Origin: Mizuhopecten yessoensis
Lineage: Eukaryota
Direction: 5' to 3'
DNA: 64,000 bases
Assembly (NCBI RefSeq): GCF_002113885.1
Contig: NW_018405922.1
Span: 218,477 to 282,476, forward strand
In this document: positions 27,130 through 63,605 of the stretch, piece by piece
How the letters are laid out: each line of letters begins with the position of its first letter
Position numbering within the stretch: position 1 is the stretch's first letter
The notes under the pieces: generated by a model
Databases searched by the model: none
Told to the model about the DNA's origin: nothing
What the model saw: only the letters and a program-made list of their open reading frames with translations
Translations under genes and position numbers: made by a program

Positions 27130-28345
27130 AGGTAATAATCGTTTTCCAATATTTCCATAGGCAATAAGCGTTATCAAGATCTAAAACTAAAATACGGGTT
27201 GTGCAAGACTTAATTGATGAGTGTTCTCTGCGATTAATAGAACCTATAAGCGTTCTTCATAATTGAAATATGAATTAAGTGCTATATATGATTAATATAG
27301 GAAATACGAATTTTTACGTATTATATGAGTAATGCAGACTTTGACGGTAGGTATGAAAAAGAATATTCTAGTGGCGACACATCTTCTCTTCTCCAGGCTT
27401 TGTGAAATTAGTGTTTGTTTTATATTTCTCACCTAGGCATTTAGCATAATAAGCGTTGTTCAAGATTAGCAGAGGTAATAAGCGTTCGTCAAGAGTTTAT
27501 TTATATGTACGAAATGTAAATGGCAATTTTCACGATATAAAGTAAGCATTCTTCAGGATTTAACAAAGGTGGTAAGCGTTTTTCAGGATTTTACATTAGA
27601 ATAATTGTTTTGGTTTAATTTTTGTTTAACGTCCTATTAACAGTTTATTTAAAGACGTGCCTCCATGTGTGTAAAGTATGCGTGCTTGCGTGTGTGTGTG
27701 CAGGAAACGGTATGGTGGTGTGCTTGCCTCCTTGTGATAGCGCGGATCTGATACCGACTTTGTAGTGCTATCTCACTGAAATACCATGCCGTAGGCACCC
27801 AGCACAGCATTCCGCCCGGTTACATTATACTGACAACGGATGAACCAGTTGTTGCCATTCCCCTTAATGCTGAACGTACAGCAGGGAATAACAACTACCA
27901 TTTTTTAGGACTTTGGTATGTCCCGGCTTGGAAACAGAACCCATTGCCTTCCTCACCTAGGCGAACGCTCATTATTAAGGCCAAAAGTCAGGAAATAAAA
28001 GGTAGTTAGAAGTAGAAAGCAAGATTAAGATCCCATAAATTGCAATGGGTGCAGCAGATTCATTTTGGTCACTTTTGTGTCCCCAAATAGAGGACACCAA
28101 AGCAAATCCTCAATTCTGTAGAGGGTTCACATTAGTCGCCGCCTATGATACATGCAGTGGGAAACAGCAGGTGTATTGTTTTCCTGATTCCCCTCCTGCA
28201 GGGGTTGCATTAAGCATTCTTCAGGAATTACATTAGTAAAAAGCGTTCTTCAGGATTTCCATTGGAAATAAGTGTTTTCCAGGTAATACGCTTTCTGAAG
28301 TATTTACACAGGTTTTGAGCTTTGAGTGTTTACATAAACAATAAG
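27130..28345 (+). repeat. Degenerate ~30-bp satellite (ggtaataagcgttcttcaggatttacat) split by a SINE
   Basis: Recurrent aataagcgtt/taagcattcttcagga units at 27130-27610 and 28207-28345. Confidence 0.6.
27610..28205 (-). mobile_element. Composite SINE family B, full-length copy
   Basis: Reverse complement runs from cccctgcagg through the central aatggtagttg / tcagtataatg core to the ctgttaataggacgttaaac tail. Confidence 0.8.
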
Positions 28346-42572: not shown

Positions 42573-45500
42573 CGCAGCTGTTACACTTAGTGTACTAATA
42601 GTGACACGTTGGTACTGTAATCTATACAGGATTACCTTTCAGCAATAGTAGTTACTACCGTGTTGGTGGCACTGATGTATTGTGTTATTTAATATTGTTT
42701 CCTTTTATGACACAAACGTTACAAAAACCGATGTGGTTACAATGGATAGGGCACCGTTTACTACCGCTGTTTGATATAAGGGAGATAAATCTTGTATGTT
42801 CTGTACGAAACCAGTTTTGTGGCTACTTGGCAAAGGATTGACCTTTAACATTCCAACATATCACTATAATAGATATCCTGTTGACGTCATTACCTGTTGA
42901 TTCGGTCTGGTTTAAACATGCCATTTCTGCGCAAATCCCATGTCACCTATACACTTGTTTGAGATTAAACGGGAGAAATCTTTAAGCAACACATTTTCAA
43001 CAAAATATTTCTTATGGTTATTTCAGTCTGCATAGACGTTGGTAAGCCAATCAACAAAAATGTTTACTTGCTGTTTTTATCATTTTAATTAGGCTATGTC
43101 TGTTCTATATCTATTCAATGCTTTTCAAAAACTTTGTAGATAACAGCATTTGAAAAATGTTAGTTTATTTTACATGTAAATGTTATACATTTACTTGATA
43201 TGTTATAAAGCATACGATAACATTCCACAGTGAGACTTTATCACTATAAATCAGTTTCACATACGATCTCGTTGACGTAGTGTTCTGTAGAAGACAAGTG
43301 TGTTTGTATGGTGTTGTTTACGATGTAACATTTACACGTTTTCAATGAAATCAATAGCTATTATGAATGACATTGCATATCATATACTGCAAACGTGGAC
43401 ATTTTGGAGGTGTGGAAATATTCCCGTTTTCCGCGTGGAGTTAATTAAAGCACGCGAATATAGGTTTAAAGATTACGTATTATAGATTTTAGAAAGTGAA
43501 AAAAAAATCAGAAAGCGAATAAAAATATATAGATTTCAGTAAGAAAATAAATATTAAAATATTATACATATGGTAAATATGTAGAATACATTTATTTCAT
43601 AACCATTTTCAACGCGAAATTGTTCCCACCGCAATCAGTTTGATAAGTCTTCAAGCGAATATTACCACACGCGAGAAATTCCACTTTTTCAGTATATACC
43701 AGAATCACTGTGTCAAATTAATTACACATTGTACTGTGGATTCATGATGATGTTATTATGTTTGTTCAGAATTAAAATATTTTAAAATAAACACTGTGCT
43801 TTTGTTTGATTGTGCTTCACGTCTTATTAACATAGAGTTACAATTATATGATGAAGTGCCCCCTGTATGAAATTTGAAATGAATACATCATAATCCAATA
43901 TGCTCCAAAATCAAATATGTCGAGAATCCCATAGAAATCGGTCAGCGCAATGCAGAGACATACATGTTATATTTTTATACACTGTATAAAAATCAAAACT
44001 GTATTTTTTTTAAAGAAAATTGTACAAATGATTTTGCTCTGAACATTATGCTATTTTATGCTTTTATACACTGTTCACTTGTCCTTATACTACTAATAAG
44101 CATGATCGTAAATTCCGGTGAATGAGACGTTTGTTTGACAGTAACGTCACAAGTTCAACTACTGAAGCAGCCACCATGGAAAGATTAGACCAGAGCGAGA
44201 ATGGATATAGATTGCCAGATTGCGAATGAACATGAGCTTTTAGGAAGCAGATCATGTTTAAAATGGCGTCATGTAAATGGCATCCAGGAATATCAAATTT
44301 GTCAGAACTGTCAGACAATGTGTTGAATGGAAACTAAAGGTAAGGTTTGCGCTCTTCCTGAATTTTTATCATTATAATAATGTAGTAATGTGTCATATTT
44401 ATTTGTTCATTTGGGGAACCTCTATCATTTCATGGCATTTTAAAGAAAATCGTCCGTCCCGTTTTTATGAAAGAACAGTTCAAGATCTTTGGTTGTTTTA
44501 TCACAATGTACTTATTTAACTAATTTTAACGAAAAAAATATATAATATTTGAACTATTTTTTTTAAGAAAATTGTACAAATGATTATGATCTAAACATAA
44601 TCGATAAAATTTGCTTGAAAAGTTAAGAAAATATCACGAAAACACAAGATTTTAACATTTCATTGCCAAAATAGAGACGTTGCCATGGCAACAAAACGAT
44701 GAAAATGTCCAACGATTCAAGAAAAATTGAGAACTCATAGATTTTAATATTTCCGTTATATTAAAATAAAAATAAATCATATGTCCCGGATCTCGTTTTC
44801 ATGGAAACGTATTCCATGTATAATGAAGTCGGCAAACATCGGCCAACATCGGGAAACTTCGTAATGTTGGAATTCCCCCTAATCTTGACGTCATTTTCGG
44901 TATGAGTTACCGCCCGTTGGGGAAACCCCGATTGTAAACCAAATGGCGACTATTGGTTATTTGCGCGGCCGTTTAAAGAAAATCTCGTCAAAATAAGGTA
45001 TATCAGGGGCGGGTCCCGGTGAGGGCGTAATGGAAGCTAGGTAGACATTCAGAACGTCCTTGGTGGAAAGATTGGTATCAGTTCGTTTCGTCCTAAATAC
45101 CGTTCGCCATGGGTCGTTCCGCACCAAGTTGTTTCGCCTTAAAAATGATTTTAGGGTGAAGTGTTTTGTCCTGTTTAGTTGTGTATGGCTAATTTGATAT
45201 GATTTGAAGTTTTTCTATGTCTCCCTTACCATTTTTTTGCAATAAGACTTGTTAGATTTCTACGTGGTTGACCAAAATCGACAAAACACACGCGGGCTAC
45301 AATATCATAATTTTTCGAAATTTACATAGAAAGATATTGATGTATTCATATATTTGTATTGTTAGATGATGTATCAAGACAATCATTGTACTTTGAGCAC
45401 ATTACTTTGGATTATTTGATGTCAAGACAACTTACTGAGACACTTCAACTATCGAAAATGGACAAAATTGATCAAACCTGAGGGGAGGGGGTGTCGTAAC

Positions 45501-47869
45501 TAGACATTTTTTTCCAAATTCAGAGGGTAAAAATTTGATTTATTACGTTTTTTGAATTGTTAAGAGATTTTGCAAGAAAATGAATTTGGTTTTTCATTTA
45601 TATCTGATATAATTTGTTGTACAAATATTTTTTTCTACCATTTACCATGAAAAATGAAGTACAAACAATTGAATTTTACGGCAATATTGAATATGACTAA
45701 ATGCAATTTTTATTTTTTGGTATTTCTGGAAAGAGTTATTTTTTCATATTTGTATCCTGCAATGTTTGACCAATTTGTATAAAAGTAAATGGTTTGCAAA
45801 AAGTGAATAAAATCATAACTGTCTGCATATATAATTTTTAGGATTTTTTCATTTTATTGGACTTTGAACAGAAAGCGGCCCAGTGGAGTGCACTTATAAA
45901 AAGCATTAAAACTGGGAAAATATGCGGTAAAAGTTCATAAAAATTTGGGAAATACAAATATATTTATTTTTCATTCCAAAAAAATGTGTATTATAGGTGT
46001 GGTCTTCTATTGTTGGCTCATCAACCGGTGACTTACCAATGGATTGCTTTCAATTGTTTTAGAAAAGGTTTTTAAGTTGACATTTTCCTTTTTTAGATGT
46101 TGACATTTTGCAGACGATCGACGATCAGTATCAGAATGTTTGCAAATTATGTTTGCAACAACACCGTAACTTTCGCTTATTTCAAACGCTCAAATGGATC
46201 GGAGAATTTCACGACTTAAACTCGAGTTATCTCCCTGTGACCGCAAACCTAACCTTGATTGACGACTCTGAAGAGGGTAGCACAGACTGGTAGCACTGCA
46301 TGGCCATTTTCTGAGCACTTAAACTAGACATTTGCCGTATAAACAAACTAAAGGGACTTATAAGCAGTTCACTCTATTTTTTTGACAAACAATGCTAATG
46401 CTTTGATTTTGACTAGAACGTCAGTCTTCAATCACTTGGTTTATTCCACAATGAGAAGTTATTCGATACCGGCGCCATTTTGTGACCATTTTGTGACCAG
46501 TTCTGCATACAGTTGTACAACAACGGTCCACAGATACGGAAATATTTTACTACAAAATGTATACAAAACTATCCAAACTTAACGTCTGCTTTATTTTCAC
46601 GACAATAAAATATTTTGCATATTTTAAATATCTAATCTTACCAAGCGTATAATCACATTTTGATGACAATTTGCCTTCCTTAGGCTAGGTCAAAGAATAA
46701 ACAATAAAATGCCGACAAATAGTTATACATATGATATTTTGCAGCACTTATATACCGTATTTAATTATATTTATCTTGAAAATGTAATTGAATTATTAAC
46801 TTGTTCTTCCTATAAATAAGTTCATATAAGTAACATCTTTGGTTCAATTAAAAAACCCATCTCAACTCCTTCAGCGTGATTAGGTGTGAAATTTGTATAT
46901 TATTATTTCCTTTATTTCCTCCAGAAAATACACAAAACGGCTTGTTCTCGATTTCCCCACTTTTTAAGAAAACAAGGAATGATATTAGAAGGATTATAGC
47001 CTGTTTCTGGGTAGTATTGGCAATATTAACCTGTATTTCACTGTGTTTTCCCCTGTGTAGAATTGTTCCATGTAAAGTTTTATAGCTAAAGGCTGATAAT
47101 GTAAGATATCAAATGAGATATAAACCAGGATTATGATAAGCAGATGACCTGATACGTAAACTCGATAAGCTGACGATGACGTCCTGGTTTGAGGGATGGC
47201 CGTGCCGCTGATAAAATTCTAACTACGCATTGGAAAACCTTGTATCTGACATTACTATAACTTTGATAAATCACTTCTGAAAAAAGAAAACCACACCCTG
47301 CAGATATTCACCACAAATATATATATATAAAAAAAACCCAAAAAAACCCACAGTGTTCTAAGTGTAAAATGTAAAGGAAATGTTTGCACAGAGACCATTG
47401 ACAAAGAACATGGATGATAAGTTCAGGTGTTCCGGGAGGGCCTTCGACGACGAATCCAAGTAATAGTATCGGGATAATTCGCAACAACGTCACAAGGCGC
47501 ACTAACGAGAATAAGTTAAAACGTCAATACACAAATGGATAATATTCCAACATTATAATAATAGCGACCATTAAGCTTGCGTATAGTTTTAATCAATTTT
47601 TACCATCACTCGTACAGGACATATTTATACCAAACATTGATTACTAGTTTCCTTATATGTAGAATGAAAAGAGTAACAATTGATAACGAGATTTATTTAT
47701 TTGAGAAGTCAGACGTGGAACTCGACGTGGCAAACCAGGACACACTACAGTACTACGGAGTCCTTTGTGTACTGAACTTTCGCAGAACGCCGTCGTTAAA
47801 GACCAAAGACACTCCTGTATCTCTTGTTATCTTTGGTGAAGCGCGCTGACTACTATTCCTATTTTTCTC

Positions 47870-47873
47870 ATGG
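47870..47873 (+). CDS. Exon 1 coding part (ATG G) of the LU-IgGFc gene
   Basis: ctcATGG|gttagt donor; phase 1 joins the signal-peptide exon to give MGAYTIF... Confidence 0.5.
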
Positions 47874-48252: not shown

Positions 48253-48303
48253 GTGCTTACACTATTTTCGTCACCTTCCTGGTCTTCCTGGTTATAATTC
48301 AAT
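48253..48303 (+). CDS. Exon 2, signal peptide core (GAYTIFVTFLVFLVIIQ)
   Basis: Acceptor cattgttcag, donor |gtaagt, phase 1-1; hydrophobic stretch continues into YITA-LRC. Confidence 0.7.
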
Positions 48304-48506: not shown

Positions 48507-49095
48507 CCCCTGCAGGTAAAGGACAGAAAAAAGAATACACCTGCGGTTACCAACTACATGTAGCTTAAGAGGTGACTTATGCGAGGATCCACCTGCATAA
48601 TTGGGGATTGGCTTTTGTGCCCTCCACTAGGGGACACGAATGTGACCAAAATAATCTGCTGCACCATTTGCAATAATTGGGATCTTTATATTTCTTTCAA
48701 CTTTTAATTTCCTAGCGCCTTCCTTGGCAACACTTCATTTTTGGCTTTGATATTGAGCGTTCGCTCAGGTGAGGAAGGCAATTGGTTCTATCCCCAAAAC
48801 CGGGACATACCAAAGTTCGTTAAATGGTAGTTGCTAGTTCTCTGCTTAACGTGCAGCATTTAGTGGAATGGCAACAACTGGTTCACCCGTTTCAGTATAA
48901 CGCGACAGGATGGAATGTTGTGCTGGGTACCTTCGGTATGGTATTTTAGTGAGATGGAACTATAAAGGCGTCATCAGATCCGCGCTATCACACAAGGAGG
49001 CAAAAACACCAACTCATCCTGTCTCCGGCACACTTATACACATGCATGCATACACAACACACAACGAGACATGTCCTTAAATGTCCTTACCTTAA
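48507..49095 (+). mobile_element. Composite SINE family B copy
   Basis: cccctgcaggt leader, B-box-like ggttctatccc (48784), central core, gtccttaaatg tail. Confidence 0.8.
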
Positions 49096-50255: not shown

Positions 50256-50341
50256 ATATCACCGCCCTACGATGTTTAAGTTGTAATGGTTTCATACAAC
50301 CACATCAGTGTTCTAATATCGAACTCTGCCCTGAAGGAGAC
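50256..50341 (+). CDS. Exon 3, LU-like domain 1a (YITALRCLSCNGFIQPHQCSNIELCPEGD)
   Basis: ttctttgacag acceptor, |gtaagt donor, phase 1-0; LxCxxC start typical of three-finger domains. Confidence 0.85.
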
Positions 50342-50920
50342 GTAAGTAGGCCATTAAATACAGTTATCTTTGTGGGAAAAAACGAGGTTTAATGTCAAAT
50401 ATTAACAAAAAGGTTACGGAGACCACGAAGGGACATATGAATACATTTACTAATCCGTGTGTACGAGTTACCAACCCGTGCGCATGACATTCCAATACAT
50501 GTATACGAATTACTAATCCGTATGCACGAGTTATCTTATCTCTTATCGTGGCTCTGTAATTATAGTTGAGATTTAAATAGTGTGTTCGGTAATATATCAG
50601 AGAAAAGGTCACAAATGGTCATTTTAAAATAGGATTTACGTAGAAAAATCGAATTGTACACGTATAACTGCCTGTAGTTGTTTCCGTGAGTTAGGTCTTT
50701 AAAACAACTTATTCTCTATGACGGTGATATTTATTAACAATTAATCACCCTAGGAGCATTTTGCATAGGGTGTCTTTAATGAAGTAAGGACATCGGATTT
50801 ACGGGGGTCTTGTCCGTAACCTCAATTTAAAAACAAACAAGAAAAATATCTGTATATGAACCAAGTCATATTTAAATCAGTTAAAATTCATAGATGTAAG
50901 AATATGCGTTTTATATCCAG

Positions 50921-50992
50921 GTATGCATAACTGAGTCCTACCGAAGCGAGAATGGTGAAACCATGTTTTACGTTGGGTGTGCGTCTGCAAAG
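50921..50992 (+). CDS. Exon 4, LU-like domain 1b (VCITESYRSENGETMFYVGCASAK)
   Basis: ttttatatccag acceptor, AAG|gtataa donor, phase 0-0. Confidence 0.85.
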
Positions 50993-51242
50993 GTATAAAT
51001 AACCGTAAATATGGTGACTTTTAATAGGATGGTTCATAACCTATCCAAGCGGATGAATCATGTTCTATGAGTAACACATTTAACATCATCAGGTAAATAT
51101 CGCTTCATTAATATGAAACTAAATCACTTTTTGCGCGGTCTTGTTGATTTGTGACAGAACGCCATAAAAAGTACAGCACTTTTCCCCTTAGACCCGCTCA
51201 CTTGTTCAGCAATGCTGAGCGTATCCAGTGGCTGGCTGGATG

Positions 51243-51823
51243 TCCCTGCAGGTGGGGCGTAAGAATTGTACCTGCTGCCCCCATTGCATGATTGTAAAAG
51301 GCGACTTAATTTGTGATCTTATCTTTTCTCTTTATTCTAAACAACTTTCTTCTTCCTAATGTCTTCCTTGACAATGCCTCACTTTTGGCCTTCCATAAAT
51401 GACCATAGCTGTTGGTAGGACGTTAAACAATACTAAATAAAACCGTTAGTTTAGTGTTCGCCCCTTTGAGGAAGGTTTTGGGTTATGTTCCCTGGCTGAA
51501 ACATACCGGAGTCTGTAAAAATGGTAGTTTTTACTCCTGCTTAGCGCTGATCAATTTAGGAGTGAGACGACTGGTTCATCCGTTTTCAGTATAATGTGAC
51601 CGGGTGGGGTGTCCTGCTGGGTGTCTTTGGCAGTATGTTTCAGTGCGGTAGCACTATAAAGTCGGCATCAGTTCCGCGCTATCACAAGGAGACAAACACT
51701 AACATATCGCAGCGTTCCAAAACACACACACATACACTTCACGCATGCATCTTGCACATAAGGGAGGCCGTCCTTAAATGACCATAGCGGTTGATAGGAC
51801 TTTAAACTGAACCAACTAAACCA
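51243..51823 (+). mobile_element. Composite SINE family B copy with a 16-bp target-site duplication
   Basis: TSD agtggctgg(c/a)tggatg at 51227-51242 and 51824-51839. Confidence 0.88.
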
Positions 51824-52113
51824 AGTGGCTGGATGGATGGCCGCCTGTACGTTAGTAATGGATGCAGTGTCGTGACTATGTAGTACCATGTAACTATGTA
51901 AGGCCAGTTCCCGGTGGTTAGGGAAGGTGCATTGGTTTTCCTATCAAATGCCTGTAAAATCCTTTTAATTTAAATCAATTCGATGATGAATTTGAGATCT
52001 TTTGCTTTTTAATATTTTGTAGTTTATATGATGTATTTCATGTTTAATATTAAACGTTTTACTTGAACACTCATATATAAATCATTAAGGTTTTTTTTTA
52101 TTTGTTCATCAAG

Positions 52114-52249
52114 AGATGTGCATTGACCAGCGGTCATAAACGCTTCGCTGACATCCTTCGGACAGATAACATCGGAACTCCTCCGCATCGTATATGTACT
52201 GAGTGCTGCCACAGTGACCTTTGTAATTCTGCGGGTTGTCGAATGGGCG
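52114..52249 (+). CDS. Exon 5, LU-like domain 1c (RCALTSGHKRFADILRTDNIGTPPHRICTECCHSDLCNSAGCRMG)
   Basis: T-rich tract and aag acceptor, G|gttagt donor, phase 0-1; CCxxDLCN motif. Confidence 0.85.
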
Positions 52250-52809
52250 GTTAGTCAAAATTTGGTACAGACATTAGCTAGGGCCCCTTCCACGTATCCG
52301 GTTCAACTGATCTGTCTGTTTTTAAATGTTCCTTTTTCGGGTATAAATCCTGGCGGACCTGCAACTGTTTATTCAGGCCTTGCAAGAACAGCATCTGATT
52401 TCTTGGTCCGAACAATTTTGTTCTTCAACTAACAACTCTTGTCCAACTGGTTCAATCGTTGCATCGCGATAACCGAATGCAGCTTAGGGAGAGCCGTTAT
52501 ATGGGCGAAATTCCATACTGTGATTTTGTCGCTTGGTTATAAATTGTGCATTATGGACATGAAGACCTACATTGTTATAGTCTGGTTTGTAGTACTTAGA
52601 CGATTACTCCTATTGTGGTACAGAAGCTTTATATCAGTGCTAATATTGGTTTGCATTTATCACCTGCGATAAGAAGCGACCGCATCAAATCAGACTTATA
52701 AGAAAATTAAGTTTATATCTACGTTCATGGGACCAAACTCTATTAAACGAACGAACGAAGCGCTTTAATCCTTTTTAATTACGTGTTATATTCGTCCATC
52801 TTTAAATAG

Positions 52810-52904
52810 GATTTCCAACACAAAGAGGACCGGTATGTTTAGATTGTCCACAATCACGTGACCTTGCTGATTGTGATGCCATCTCCATTTGTCAACAAAG
52901 CGAG
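52810..52904 (+). CDS. Exon 6, LU-like domain 2a (GFPTQRGPVCLDCPQSRDLADCDAISICQQSE)
   Basis: tttaaatag acceptor, GAG|gtaagg donor, phase 1-0; same Cys spacing as exon 3. Confidence 0.85.
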
Positions 52905-53160
52905 GTAAGGATATTGATTCCAATCAATTATAGTGGTACAAATAAAACAGGAAAATACGGAAGTGTCATCAAAACTACACTTCCAGTAGAAAATTGATAA
53001 AATATGGTCAAAATATGAACAAAGGAAAGATTAACATTGATACCAATGAAAAGGAAGCAAAAGGAGAAACAAATGAGGTGTTCCAGAAGTGAAAGAGTAT
53101 TATGTAACATATCACATGTTCAATATACAAGAAGTCAAATAACCATGGTCCAATGGGAGA

Positions 53161-53378
53161 GGCCTGCTGGGTGTTTTCGGCAGTATGTTTCAGTGCGGTA
53201 GCACTATAAAGTCGGCATCAGTTCCGCTTTATAACAAGGAGACAAACACTAACATATCGCAGCCTCCCGAAACACACACGCATACACTACTCGCATGCAT
53301 CTTGCACACAGGGAGGCCCTCCTTAAATGACCCTAGTTGTTGATAGGACGTTAAACATTACTGAACCATACCAAACCT
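53161..53378 (+). mobile_element. 5'-truncated SINE family B copy with an 8-bp TSD
   Basis: Near-identical to 51612-51810; atgggaga at 53153 and 53379. Confidence 0.85.
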
Positions 53379-53500
53379 ATGGGAGATCAACCAAAACCAA
53401 ACAGCAGGAAGAACTCCCCGATATAGAGCTGTCAAACCAGTTGTTATTAGTGCAATGGCAACCAATGATATGCCTGTCAATTTTAAATATTTTATTTAAG

Positions 53501-53569
53501 GTATGTTACGTTGAGGAAATGTTTGAGTTCGGCGATATATTCTACAAAACAAGCTGCCTACCGAATACA
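53501..53569 (+). CDS. Exon 7, LU-like domain 2b (VCYVEEMFEFGDIFYKTSCLPNT)
   Basis: tttatttaag acceptor, |gtgagt donor, phase 0-0; parallels exon 4. Confidence 0.85.
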
Positions 53570-53844
53570 GTGAGTGCCATTATATTTACGAAATGGTTGT
53601 TTGTATAGATTACATATATGTCTCCTAAGTGTACTTTACAACATAACTTCAGTTCATAAAGTAATTGTTGTTGATAATGAACAAACAGCTCCAGTTTTTT
53701 TTATTCCTTATTGTACTTTTCAGAGATGATTGCATTCGCGCGTTTGTAAAGCCTCTCGTATCATGTCTAGGTTTTGTTGAAGCAGCATAAACAATAGAGT
53801 AACATTCTTTAAGGTTTGTTCTTTACTGTTTGATGAAGGACCAG

Positions 53845-53947
53845 CGATGTGTTCCTCCTACATATAACCCGGTGGAGGTTGGCAAGCGGTCACATCAACT
53901 TGGAACCTGCTTCTCCTGCTGCCCATATGACCTCTGTAACAGCAAAT
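53845..53947 (+). CDS. Exon 8, LU-like domain 2c (RCVPPTYNPVEVGKRSHQLGTCFSCCPYDLCNSK)
   Basis: CCxxDLCN motif, phase 0-1. Acceptor either cag 53844 or aag 53838 (both in frame); donor gtaaaa is weak. Confidence 0.75.
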
Positions 53948-54417
53948 GTAAAATGATAATTGCTTTTTAATGACAATATTATTAATGTAGCTACCCATAT
54001 ATGTTAAACAAACAAACATCAGATTCATTGTTCAAACATATTCTAATTATCAATATCAATCAAAGGAAATTGGTTCAAGTTCTTACATTTTATTATCCTC
54101 TCAAACACATTGAATACGGTTCGACAAAATGGGAAATTTATCATAAGTTTTATTCCATTTGTAGTAGTGATTCCATCAAGTAAATATCAGTGACATCATT
54201 CTCACTTCATCCTTGTTCAAATTATCGGTTGATATATATTTAGAAAATTACTTACTAAGATATCGGTAAAAATCCCAGGAATTAAGCATGGTCGGTGTCC
54301 TTTATATAATTTTTGTTTTCTTCAGTTAATGCGAAGCCAAAATAAGAAATAATATCATATCTATATATTTATATTAATTCGACCAGAGTCGTATCTTTAA
54401 CATTTACATTTTACCAG

Positions 54418-54498
54418 GTAATTCTTTCTCATCGTCCGTGCTAACAACGATACCGGCAACAACTCCGACTCCAAAAACCCAGGCTCCCATAACTAACA
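54418..54498 (+). CDS. Exon 9, Ser/Thr/Pro linker (CNSFSSSVLTTIPATTPTPKTQAPITN)
   Basis: catttacattttaccag acceptor, A|gtaaat donor, phase 1-1; mucin-like composition. Confidence 0.75.
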
Positions 54499-55070: not shown

Positions 55071-56314
55071 GTTTCAAAGGAAAATCGTTTTTCTTGATGT
55101 TCATTAGAAATCATGAATATGTCTACATTGCACAACACCTAAGTGTAAACGTAACATTCTTAGCTACTCATGCTAATATAGAAGTGATCACACGATATAA
55201 CGCAACATCACAACCTGTTTCTGGTCCAGCAAAATATATTGAAATAGACGCAAACATGACCATGCGAGAAAACGGCAAAACAAGCAAAGGGCTCATTCTG
55301 ACGTCTGACACACTAATGTCTGTCACTGCATTTAACAGTCTTGCAGGTGGAACAGCGGATGGATACCTTGCCTTACCTATGGAGAGTCTTGGTGTCTTCT
55401 ATATCGTGGGGACATTCAGACCTAATACAAAGAGTTATAGCATCTATGGAACTTCATTTGCTGTAGGAGCGCCGTACGACAACACATTGATCAATATCAC
55501 ACTCAGTACATCAGGTGTGACTGTTCCTGGCCAATATCACAAGGTGGGAGATAAAATCACCGTCATACTGGACAAATTGGACACGTTCTATATAGAAACA
55601 ACAACGAGTTACCAGGACCTGACAGGCACGCGTATCGTTAGCGATAAGCCAGTAGCGGTCGTGTCCGGTAATGTCTGTTCTAACAGAGAAGGGTGTAACC
55701 ATCTCATTGAGTATCTACCTCCCGTGTCAAAATGGGGTTCCAGGTTCATTGTACCACCTTTTATGAGAAGTACCAGTGGTATTATCAGGATTGTCTCGTC
55801 GGTAAACAATACGAGTGTTGTTGTCGCTTCTAAAACCTCGATTAAAACATATACTATATCAACCTTCATTAATATAGATACAGATCCAACTCAACCGTAC
55901 CGCATTTCTAGTGAAAGACCTGTTCTTGTCCTACTATTTTTGAATGTAATCAAAGTTGGAATGTCAATTATTCCGTCAATAAACCAGTTTTCCAATGAAC
56001 CCGTGCTGGTTTCGCCTCCTCAAGTTTCCTACTTCCAAAACACTCCATTCGAAAACTTTATCGTTGTCAGTATCCGGACAAGCGACCAGTCCGGCTTACA
56101 GCTTCTCTCCACTAAAGGGACGGACTTGACTCGCATTGGATCAGTGACATTTCCTGGCATTGACGGCGAGATGTTTAGCTTCATATCTGTCAACTGCAAC
56201 AACAAACAAACATGTTCTGTTCAACATAGCGACAACAACGTGGTGTTCAGTGTTATAACATATGGGTTTACAAGGGCTGAAACGTATGCATATCCTGCAA
56301 ATCTCAGTTTGTAA
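55071..56314 (+). CDS. Exon 10, IgGFc-binding protein N-terminal-type domain
   Basis: GKSFFLMF, KGLILTSD, DGYLALPMESLG, DLTGTRIVSDKPVAVVSGN, HLIEYLPPVSKWG and YGFTRAETYAYPA match the FCGBP N-terminal (IgGFc_binding) family pattern; strong acceptor ttttttttgacag. Confidence 0.92.
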
Positions 56315-60820: not shown

Positions 60821-62895
60821 CCTAAGTAGTAAGTCGTGATTATATTTACATTCAATATTAACATATGTCAGATTAATTAAAAGTTTCATTTATTTTTTTT
60901 ATATTGGTTTGGTACATCAGTGTTGTATACTACTTATTGTGGTGTATCAGTGGTGTATAATACCTATTTTTACACATCAGTCCAGTGTTATACTTGTGAC
61001 AAATCAGTGCACTTCAATATTGGTTTGGTACATCAGTGTTGTGTAATACTTTTTTTGACAAATCTGTGCTTTGTGTAAGGTGCAGGCGGTCACTTATCCA
61101 ACTATTGACCATGCTCGACGTTGCTTACCTAGTGAGCGGGTCCCCGGGTTATACCGCATCACTAGAAAAGCTAGCTAGACTTTATCACTATAACTCAGTT
61201 TCACATACGATCTCGTTGACGTAGTGTTCTGTAGAAGACAAGTGTGTTTGTATAGTGTTGTTTACGATGTAACATTTACACGTTTACAATGAAATCAATA
61301 GTTATTAGGAATAACATTGCATATCATATGCTGCAAACGTGGACATTTTGAAGGTGTGGAAATATTCACGTTTTCCGCGTGGATTTAATTAAAGCACGCG
61401 AATATAGGTTTAAAGAATACGTATTATAGATTTCAGAAAGTGAAAAATATTTCAGAAAGCTAATATAAATATAGAGATTTCAGAGAAGTCTTCAAGCGAA
61501 TATTACCACACGCGAGAAATTCCACTTTTTCAGTATATAACAGAATCACTGTGTCAAATTTATTACACATTGTACTGTGGATTCATGATGATGTTATTAT
61601 GTTTGTTCAGAAATAAAAGATTTTAAAATAAACACTGTTATTTTGTTTGTTTGTGCTTCACGTCTTATTAACATAGAATTATAATCATAGGATGAATTGC
61701 CCCCTGCACGAAATTTGAAATGAATACTTCATAATCTAATATGCTCCAAAATCAAATATGTCGGAAATCCCATAGAAATAGGTCAGCGCAATGCAGAGAC
61801 ATAAATTTGTAAATTTTATGCTTTTATACACTGTTCACATGTCCTTATATTACTAATAAGGATTGATCGTAAATTCCGGTGAATGAGACGTTTGTTTGCC
61901 AGTTACGTCACAAGTTCAACTACTGTAGCAGCCACCATGGAAAGATTAGACGAGAGCGAGAATGGATATAGATTGCCAGATTGCGAATGAACATGAGCTT
62001 TGAGAAAGCAGACCATATTTAAAATGGCATCATGTAAATGGCATCCAGGAATATCAAATTTCTCAGAACTGTCAGACAATGTGTTGAATGGAAACTAAAG
62101 GTAAGGTTTGCGCTCTTCCTCGATTTTTATCATTATAATAATGTAGTAATGTGTCATATTTATTTGTTCATTGGGGGAACCTCTATCATTTCATGGAATA
62201 TTTAAGAAAATCACCAGTACCCTTTTTTTCATGGTAAATGGTAGAAAAAAATATTTTTACAACAAATTATATCAGAAGATATTTTGGTTGTTTTATCATA
62301 ATGTATTTATTTAAATATTTTTAATGAAAAAAATATGTAAGCATCAAAACTATTTTTTTTTAAGAAAATTGTACAAATGATTTTGATCTAAACAATATCT
62401 ATAAAATTTGCTTGAAAAGTTAAGAAAAAATCACGAAAACACAAGATTTGAACATTTCATTGCCAAAATAGAGACGTTGCCATGGCAAAAAAACGATGAA
62501 AATGTCCTGTTTCCAGGTCCAACGATTCAAGAAATATTGAGAACTCATAGATTTTAATATTTCCATTATATTAAAATTCAAAAAAAAAAATATGTCCCCG
62601 ATCTCGTTTCCATGGAAACGGATGCTATATTGACCCCTCTTAAGGTATTCCATGTATAATGAAGTCGGCAAACATCTGGAAACTTCGTAATGTGGGAATT
62701 CTCCCTAATCATGACGTCATTTTCGGTATGAGTTACCGCGGCTTGTTCTCGTTTCCCCCACTTTTTAAAATAACATGGGGGGGGGGGGGGGGGGGGGGGG
62801 AGGGGAAGAATGTTGTTAGAAGGATTATAGTCTGTTTCTAAGTAGTATGGGAAGTATATATTTACCTGTGTTTTTAACTGTGTTTTTACCTGTGG
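60821..62895 (+). repeat. Segmental duplication, copy 2 (short form)
   Basis: Same blocks in the same order and orientation, with the intervening segments absent. Confidence 0.85.
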
Positions 62896-63605
62896 TAAAC
62901 CCTTCTATCTAAGGTGGTGTTTTATCATATTTAATTTAATAATACATTATATAAGATGTTTTTTAGATTTGTAATGACAAGTGTTAAAATTTAAATTATT
63001 TAAATACTAATCATATATATAGATATAAATATATATATTCAGTATTAGATATATCCATTTTGTAGTCCTTGTGCTGCTGATATGATAAGATGAATATTAT
63101 ATTAATATAAATAGTTATTAAATAATCTTTATTATTGTAACATTTAATAAGATGCCTACATTACCTTGTACAAAATGGAAGAATGTAATGTGTGACTAAG
63201 AGTGTGGTGTTTAACAGTTAATTAATCAAAATTCCTAGATGTTATTAGTATCTTATAACTATCATTACGTGATAAGATGTTCGTCGATGGTATGTTGTAC
63301 ACGGGCGAGACGAGTTCTTAAAGGATGGAATCACGTGTTCAGCCTGCTCACCCATGAATGTAGAGGAAAGCAGGTCGAAGAGATCGCGCCAGCCGTCAAC
63401 TCCAAACGGAACAGGATCATCAACTTCCGGTTGTCCACCGTCACGTCGGGCTAGATACGCTGTTGGCCAGGATAGGCAAGGTTCTCATGCGGGTTGTGAT
63501 GAGGAACAGACCTACGCCAAAGCTGTTTCCGCATAGGGCTCTATATACGAGAGTGTTAAGTCATGTGCAAAGCTTCATGGTAAATTATCTCCTATGTACG
63601 ACTTA

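Follow-up and report, generated by a model that had tools for sequence, protein, structure and literature searches.

A conserved dibasic site in finger III of a scallop LU domain and its possible prohormone-like processing

A stretch of 64,000 nucleotides from the scallop Mizuhopecten yessoensis (NCBI RefSeq assembly GCF_002113885.1, contig NW_018405922.1, positions 218,477 to 282,476 of the forward strand; hereafter the window) contains a spliced gene for a protein with two cysteine-rich repeats, each with the dibasic pair Lys-Arg (KR) in the loop between its seventh and eighth Cys. KR and GKR are prohormone-convertase sites, and a Gly before KR signals amidation. The question raised by this locus is whether the loops are nicked, turning each domain into a disulfide-linked two-chain form as a first-pass annotation of the sequence had proposed, or whether the pairs have some other origin. 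The feature itself is real, and nicking of the loop (finger III of a three-finger fold) is well supported by sequence statistics for the second repeat (domain 2) and for the wider mollusc family; the KR of the first repeat (domain 1) may be cleavable but probably lies outside the mechanism. It is probable, though some way from certain, that a prohormone convertase cuts finger III of domain 2, that the new end is amidated, and that the two resulting chains stay joined by a single disulfide.

Two twelve-cysteine repeats and their dibasic sites

Translation of the spliced exons bore out the twelve-Cys pattern first seen in each repeat, with Cys at residues 25, 28, 37, 43, 49, 67, 73, 99, 102, 103, 108 and 113 in repeat 1 (exons 3 to 5) and at 126, 129, 138, 144, 150, 167, 175, 195, 198, 199, 204 and 208 in repeat 2 (exons 6 to 9, the codon of Cys208 being split by an intron). 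The KR between Cys7 and Cys8 was likewise present in both, as K80-R81 within GHKRF in repeat 1 (52138-52143, + strand) and within VGKRS in repeat 2, where G186-K187-R188 (53881-53889, + strand) follows YNPVEV and forms a predicted convertase and amidation site. The two pairs had been treated together, with amidation signalled by G-KR; this suits repeat 2, in which Gly186 is adjacent, and fails for repeat 1, which reads G-H-K-R and therefore carries no amidation signal, and in which the pair occupies a different position in the loop. At the family's non-loop residue frequencies, the chance of [KR]R is 10% for a loop of 25 residues, and that of G[KR]R is 0.55% for a loop of 19. The furin motif R-X-[KR]-R is absent from both loops. 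A third dibasic pair, K71-R72, spans an exon junction (50990-52116) right before Cys7 of domain 1; scallop relatives keep its Arg and not its Lys, and it is probably structural.

Both repeats fit the ten-Cys framework of Ly6/uPAR (LU) domains that ends in CCxxxxCN, with alignments to SLURP-1, PSCA and Lypd1 only at E 0.23-2.8. P0026, the near-identical protein of a tandem copy of the gene, matched PF00021 in two stretches when scanned whole (38 bits vs a cut-off of 24.8; E 2.4e-9), the window's own protein having been scanned as single exons, and PF00021 was matched at E <= 0.01 in 40 of the 75 rows (73 distinct proteins) of the family alignment (A2). The AlphaFold2 (AF2) model of P0026, made with this 75-row alignment, had a mean predicted local confidence (pLDDT) of 78, with most core blocks at least 90 and the finger III loop blocks at 54-61; these low-confidence loops count in favour of an exposed, cuttable loop. 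Structural matches to the model included GPIHBP1 (Z 9.4, root-mean-square deviation 2.2 over 75 residues), CD59 (Z 7.8), Lypd6b, PSCA and Lynx2; the leading Foldseek matches were uPAR, C4.4A and TEX101, the top 39 rows of VIA-align were all LU, three-finger or TGF-beta-receptor ectodomain chains, and Atlas placed P0026 beside mollusc LU clusters (feature score 0.89, taken as a lead only). As modelled, the fold of the window's Cys domains is the LU three-finger fold; a conotoxin two-finger fold (PMC12236594) was dropped as a candidate after the LU fold was found.

The disulfides were assigned by homology and co-occurrence and not from the model coordinates. By homology to Lypd6 (PMC7582953), the bonds would be C1-C5, C2-C3, C4-C6, C7-C9 and C10-C11. 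Cys8 and Cys12 were both present in 270 of 289 knots, both missing in 16 and present singly in only 3 (after removal of 5 of 294 that were truncated or lay in leaders), and this co-occurrence points to C8-C12 as the likely sixth bond. Twelve Cys alone are not unprecedented, as the human Lypd6, Lypd6b and Lynx2 (Lypd1) have LU domains with six disulfides and, like the scallop domains, a Cys three residues ahead of the CC pair (PMC7582953). The extra Cys of Lypd6 and Lynx2 pair inside loop III (Cys61-Cys72, Cys66-Cys75; PMC7582953, as above), whereas the scallop loop III is Cys-free, with the likely partner located behind CN; the aligned Lynx2 loop shows no dibasic site. The scallop domains thus have the fold and the CCxxxxCN knot in common with Ly6/uPAR (PF00021) and differ in the likely C8-C12 bond, in a long finger III with a dibasic site and in an IgGFc_binding partner domain.

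Conservation of the finger III site in scallops and other molluscs

Alignment of homologues, the check that the first-pass annotation had named for its KR sites, separated the two repeats. G[KR]R was found in all 14 scallop proteins that have domain 2, with a second dibasic pair before Cys8 in 8 of the 14 loops, and [GD][KR]R in every one of the 8 matching M. yessoensis genomic exons (the window's own included), with synonymous and Lys/Arg codon changes; YNPVE[VI] before the site was largely conserved, and the residues behind it were variable. The domain 1 loop had a dibasic pair in 2 of 13 scallop relatives, specifically the 97%-identical tandem twin and one protein with RR elsewhere in the loop. 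At the repeat 1 site the nearest other paralogue reads H-Y-R-F (TAT for Tyr vs AAA for Lys here), and other paralogues have an N-glycosylation sequon (H-N-S-S, H-N-H-T). Because it is nearly absent from these relatives, the repeat 1 KR is read as a recent, lineage-restricted change, the pairing of the two KRs as half coincidence, and the claim that each domain is nicked as unsupported for this protein. All 11 scallop domain 1 loops examined have I/V/N-G-K/T-x at the same distance from Cys8, seen in the window as I-G-T(-P) (52171..52179; I-G-T-P 52171-52182; + strand), which may be a decayed hydrophobic-G-[KR]R site.

At E <= 0.001 a profile search returned 408 representatives (50% clustering), and the best 150 of them were analysed; a strict pattern identified 229 twelve-Cys domains in 138 of these 150, leaving 65 of 294 knots unparsed. 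All counts were drawn from the mollusc family alone. Twenty representatives were looked up and 17 could be named, from scallop, oysters, mussels, Dreissena, Mya, Ruditapes, Potamilus and Haliotis. Finger III contained [KR]R in 127 of the 229 domains (137 of 251 under a looser parse), whereas each of six other inter-Cys segments had it in 0-12 of 229. The loops are rich in Arg and Ser; within-loop shuffles nevertheless gave 45 +/- 5 for [KR]R (127 observed), 4.2 for G[KR]R (78 observed) and 3.1 for loops with two dibasic sites (35 observed), and none of 1000 shuffles reached the observed counts of [KR]R, G[KR]R, KR:RK or paired sites. KR, RK and KK occurred in finger III in the ratio 120:14:11. 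Gly stood directly before 84 of the 127 sites (loop background 7.7%), and the residue preceding that Gly, which would be the amidated one, was I/F/V/L in 69 of the 84 (background 22%). The site was followed by Pro in 0 of 127 cases and by I/V/L/M in 8, and 38 of the 78 G[KR]R loops had a second site near Cys8. A bias to KR, a preceding Gly and the lack of a following Pro are the preferences of convertase cleavage, carboxypeptidase trimming and amidation. Domain 2 and the family thus show what is expected of a convertase and amidation substrate, namely a (G)-[KR]R kept in an exposed loop, a preference for KR to RK and no following Pro, and repeat 1 does not.

The site also persists across great divergence: the median identity of the non-Cys core among its carriers is 18%, and 10 of 16 ten-Cys variants keep it. 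On a tree of 227 domains the presence of the site changed about 28-30 times, which argues that it is inherited but long-lived. Domain-1-type loops of the wider family contained [KR]R in 62 of 134 cases (shuffles 22) and G[KR]R in 30 (shuffles 1.8), and 27 of 84 multi-domain proteins had [KR]R in both of their first two domains. N-glycosylation sequons were present in 64 of the 134 domain-1-type finger III loops vs 5 of 86 of domain 2 type; the domain types may trade glycosylation for cleavage. Among the 75 alignment rows, fibrinogen C was a partner domain in 15 and C-type lectin in 11, and the main text of PMC13719153 describes molluscan proteins in which LU domains are combined with C1q, fibrinogen, Ig and MAM domains. 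A hydrophobic N-terminal window was seen in 85 of 99 relatives that have an N-terminal domain, and the scallop protein is likely secreted.

Gene structure and genomic surroundings

The gene lies on the + strand and comprises 10 exons with AG/GT borders and an open frame of 648 codons, from the ATG at 47870 to the stop at 56314, and so extends beyond the interval 50256..54425 first annotated. The encoded protein has, in order, a hydrophobic leader, two LU domains, a Ser/Thr/Pro linker and an IgGFc_binding domain (PF17517). GT..AG joints for 9 of 9 introns were found in contigs from runs guessed to be RNA (4 runs from 3 studies, with 1-4 runs per joint), and all ten exons are represented in these transcripts. 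Exon 1 (47785..47873), the first in transcripts, is mostly 5' untranslated region and has its ATG at 47870-47872; contig X3 includes the piece 47785-47872 with a GT..AG joint to 48253, and the start agrees with the MGAY beginning of P0026. An earlier guess for the first exon, 44327-44339, was rejected; it sits in a repeated block, and transcripts put the first exon at 47873. Exon 2 (48253..48303) encodes a hydrophobic, signal-peptide-like segment (helix 3-16 in the AF2 model; signal role judged by eye). LU domain 1 is encoded by exon 3 (50256..50341; Cys1-4, with a weak PF00021 match, E 0.025), exon 4 (50921..50992; Cys5-6, finger II) and exon 5 (52114..52249; Cys7-12 and the finger III loop). 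Exon 6 (52810..52904) encodes the inter-domain linker and Cys1-4 of LU domain 2, followed by exon 7 (53501..53569; Cys5-6), exon 8 (53839..53947; Cys7-11, the finger III loop and base 1 of the Cys12 codon) and exon 9 (54418..54498; the rest of that codon and the Ser/Thr/Pro-rich linker). Exon 10 (55071..56314) encodes the IgGFc_binding domain (E 1.9e-42), all 7 N-glycosylation sequons and the stop codon.

A single 741-base contig joins 52111 to 55292, with no foreign letters among its listed pieces, and can be assigned to the window's copy because the tandem copy is only 83% identical across the last exon; the exons further upstream share 98-100% identity with the twin, so transcripts of those exons alone fit either copy. 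In databases, Mizuhopecten yessoensis IgGFc-binding protein is the label of a protein that matches the last exon at 100% identity. Four raw RNA runs (tissue unlabelled, about one fifth of each) gave zero depth on the last exon and zero coding-intron joints, with reads nearly all on intronic repeats. These interspersed repeats, which attract nearly all RNA reads mapped to this locus, lie at 48822-49004, 51150-51940, 52330-52390 and 53163-53356 and have relatives at ~27610-28205 and 36081-36598. The database model of the gene (P0001; see also window ~63350-63450) is without both LU domains and has an unrelated C-terminal piece; transcripts favour the 10-exon model with its stop at 56314.

The tandem copy lies ~21.7 kb downstream (G000:C2595 ~285700-296400; L013, L014; protein P0026) and is 97% identical across 8.3 kb including introns and 80-84% from the linker onward. 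Near C2595:295324 its IgGFc exon is interrupted by an in-frame stop, and databases split the copy into two proteins (P0026, 275 aa, and probably P0003). A duplicated block at 43233-44913 and 61177-62739 (84-94% identical) lies upstream of both tandem copies, and an ETS-domain exon (PF00178, E 8.6e-35) is found upstream of the gene at 38598-39338 (+). A further paralogue cluster is located at G000:C5376 ~450000-700600 (L005-L008, L019-L023), in which a stop replaces a knot Cys in L023.

Proposed processing, its alternatives and its meaning

In the processing proposed for domain 2, the protein would enter the secretory pathway and form the five LU disulfides plus C8-C12, after which a PC1/PC2-type convertase would cut after R188, the KR would be trimmed and Gly186 converted, leaving ...YNPVEV-amide with Val185 amidated. 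An N-terminal chain of 18.1 kDa (residues 23-185) would stay bound to a C-terminal chain of 50.2 kDa (189-648, unglycosylated mass) through Cys175-Cys198 and beta-sheet, masses that assume a signal cut placed by eye; given the C7-C9 pairing and a loop free of Cys, this disulfide would be the sole covalent link. Such a cut would probably act in maturation, opening finger III so that the scaffold displays an amidated tip; release of the C-terminal domain upon reduction would be a side consequence. In the M. yessoensis genome there are 9 matches to the convertase P-domain and 33 to copper monooxygenase, the latter a count that does not single out an amidating enzyme.

Several observations weigh against this processing or restrict it. 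The presence of the site is inherited, so the domains are not independent counts, and 102 of the 229 domains have no dibasic pair (13 of these read hydrophobic-G-R and 31 R-S). One paralogue (L020) reads D-K-R and has lost the amidation Gly. The furin motif RX[KR]R was not enriched in the 229 family domains (6 vs 3.3 in shuffles), so that cleavage would require regulated-pathway enzymes in the expressing cell; with the motif also missing from the window's loops, furin processing is not supported. The frequency of the site was no higher where a long C-terminal cargo follows (54 of 87) than where the tail is short (21 of 33). This gives no support to cargo release as the purpose of the site, which is more likely to be the remodelling of finger III.

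Proinsulin-type precursors are also cut at dibasic sites within a Cys-rich secreted precursor, with removal of a C-peptide-like spacer between paired sites, and the newt sodefrin precursor (SPF) is built of two three-finger domains. SPF is likewise secreted and cut at Lys-Arg, with fragments recovered, but its sites (PMC4776240) are of frameshift origin, lie in the C-terminal part and occur only in Cynops, and are not a conserved finger III site. The Sepia pheromone precursors SP-alpha and SP-beta (PMC3484142) are Cys-rich, secreted and cut at dibasic sites, with amidated products reported; the SP peptides listed there are unrelated in sequence and without the LU Cys pattern, and so are analogues rather than homologues. 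FCGBP has PF17517 in common with the scallop protein and is secreted in cleaved form, its fragments being held together by single disulfides (PMC8267560). The cleavage of FCGBP is autocatalytic at GDPH in vWD domains, whereas the scallop protein has PF17517 only in its last exon, followed by a stop; this leaves no room for vWD domains, and the name IgGFc-binding protein is therefore a domain label only.

The alternative that survives best is a dibasic nick or spacer removal without a functional amide, made by a convertase or by an extracellular trypsin-like protease, which would loosen the domain or ready the C-terminal domain for release on reduction, a fate that has been proposed for the fragments of FCGBP. 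The 43 of 127 sites that lack Gly, the frequent second site near Cys8 in both the family and the scallop domain 2 loops, and the precedent of FCGBP all fit it, but the strong selection for Gly and a preceding hydrophobic residue would be needless for a mere nick, the predominance of KR over RK and KK is unlike trypsin-like specificity, and the site is unrelated to cargo length; this explanation is judged unlikely, if worth keeping in view. Finger III frequently bears binding motifs in three-finger proteins, and in an intact secreted recognition protein the hydrophobic-G-[KR]R could stay uncut, serving anionic glycans, a receptor or a protease as an epitope to bind or as a bait, as would accord with the exposed, flexible finger III of the model and with the fibrinogen C and C-type lectin partners. 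The distance from Cys7 to the site, however, ranges over 3-20 residues and the length of the stretch behind it over 2-54, and the KR/RK asymmetry, the absence of a following Pro and the paired sites suit processing over charge display, so that an uncut epitope is doubtful as well.

Far less probable is the original proposal that nicking acts as a shared and selected switch in both domains of this protein. It can draw on the KR in both loops, on the excess of [KR]R in domain-1-type loops of the wider family and on the multi-domain proteins with [KR]R in their first two domains; against it, the domain 1 site is missing in 11 of 13 scallop relatives, with Y-R in the nearest paralogue and a sequon in others, it lacks the Gly, and a KR in that loop would arise by chance in about one case in ten. 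The two-chain form itself, as put forward in the same annotation, is well supported for domain 2 and the wider family. Chance or artefact, meaning KR arising in any basic low-complexity loop or favoured by the search profile, accounts for the repeat 1 KR and could appeal to the Arg- and Ser-rich loops and to the G[KR]R in the query profile, but for domain 2 and the family it is scarcely credible and already contradicted by the composition-preserving shuffles, by the G[KR]R excess in domain-1-type loops and by a masked-loop profile, which showed no ranking bias. With that profile 133 of 138 representatives remained above the listing cut, and G[KR]R was equally frequent in the two halves of the profile-score ranking (36 of 69 vs 35 of 69), so the motif is not an artefact of the search.

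No report of a dibasic site in mollusc LU domains was found in the literature outside supplements and subscription journals. The main text of PMC13719153, supplements aside, has zero occurrences of 'cleav', 'dibasic', 'furin', 'amid' and 'IgGFc', and the texts of PMC10140915, PMC7333891, PMC8398477 and PMC6425005 make no mention of Ly6, uPAR or three-finger proteins. One survey of mollusc neuropeptides removed proteins that carry a known folded domain (PMC6425005), and because of such a filter a family of this kind could stay hidden from neuropeptide screens.

Convertase cleavage and amidation of domain 2 may belong to a broader picture, offered here tentatively and with the balance of probability against it, of a large, old mollusc family of 'pro-three-finger' proteins processed like prohormones, in which finger III is opened, the spacer is often removed, and a tethered amidated peptide serves as a receptor ligand on an LU scaffold aimed by lectin, C1q, fibrinogen or IgGFc-binding modules. 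To our knowledge, three-finger domains are usually viewed as scaffolds made of a single chain. If true, a convertase and amidation site conserved in finger III of bivalve and abalone proteins would give the three-finger fold a new means of maturation or switching, and would connect the machinery of neuropeptide processing with a large set of mollusc proteins that are uncharacterised and probably mucosal or immune.

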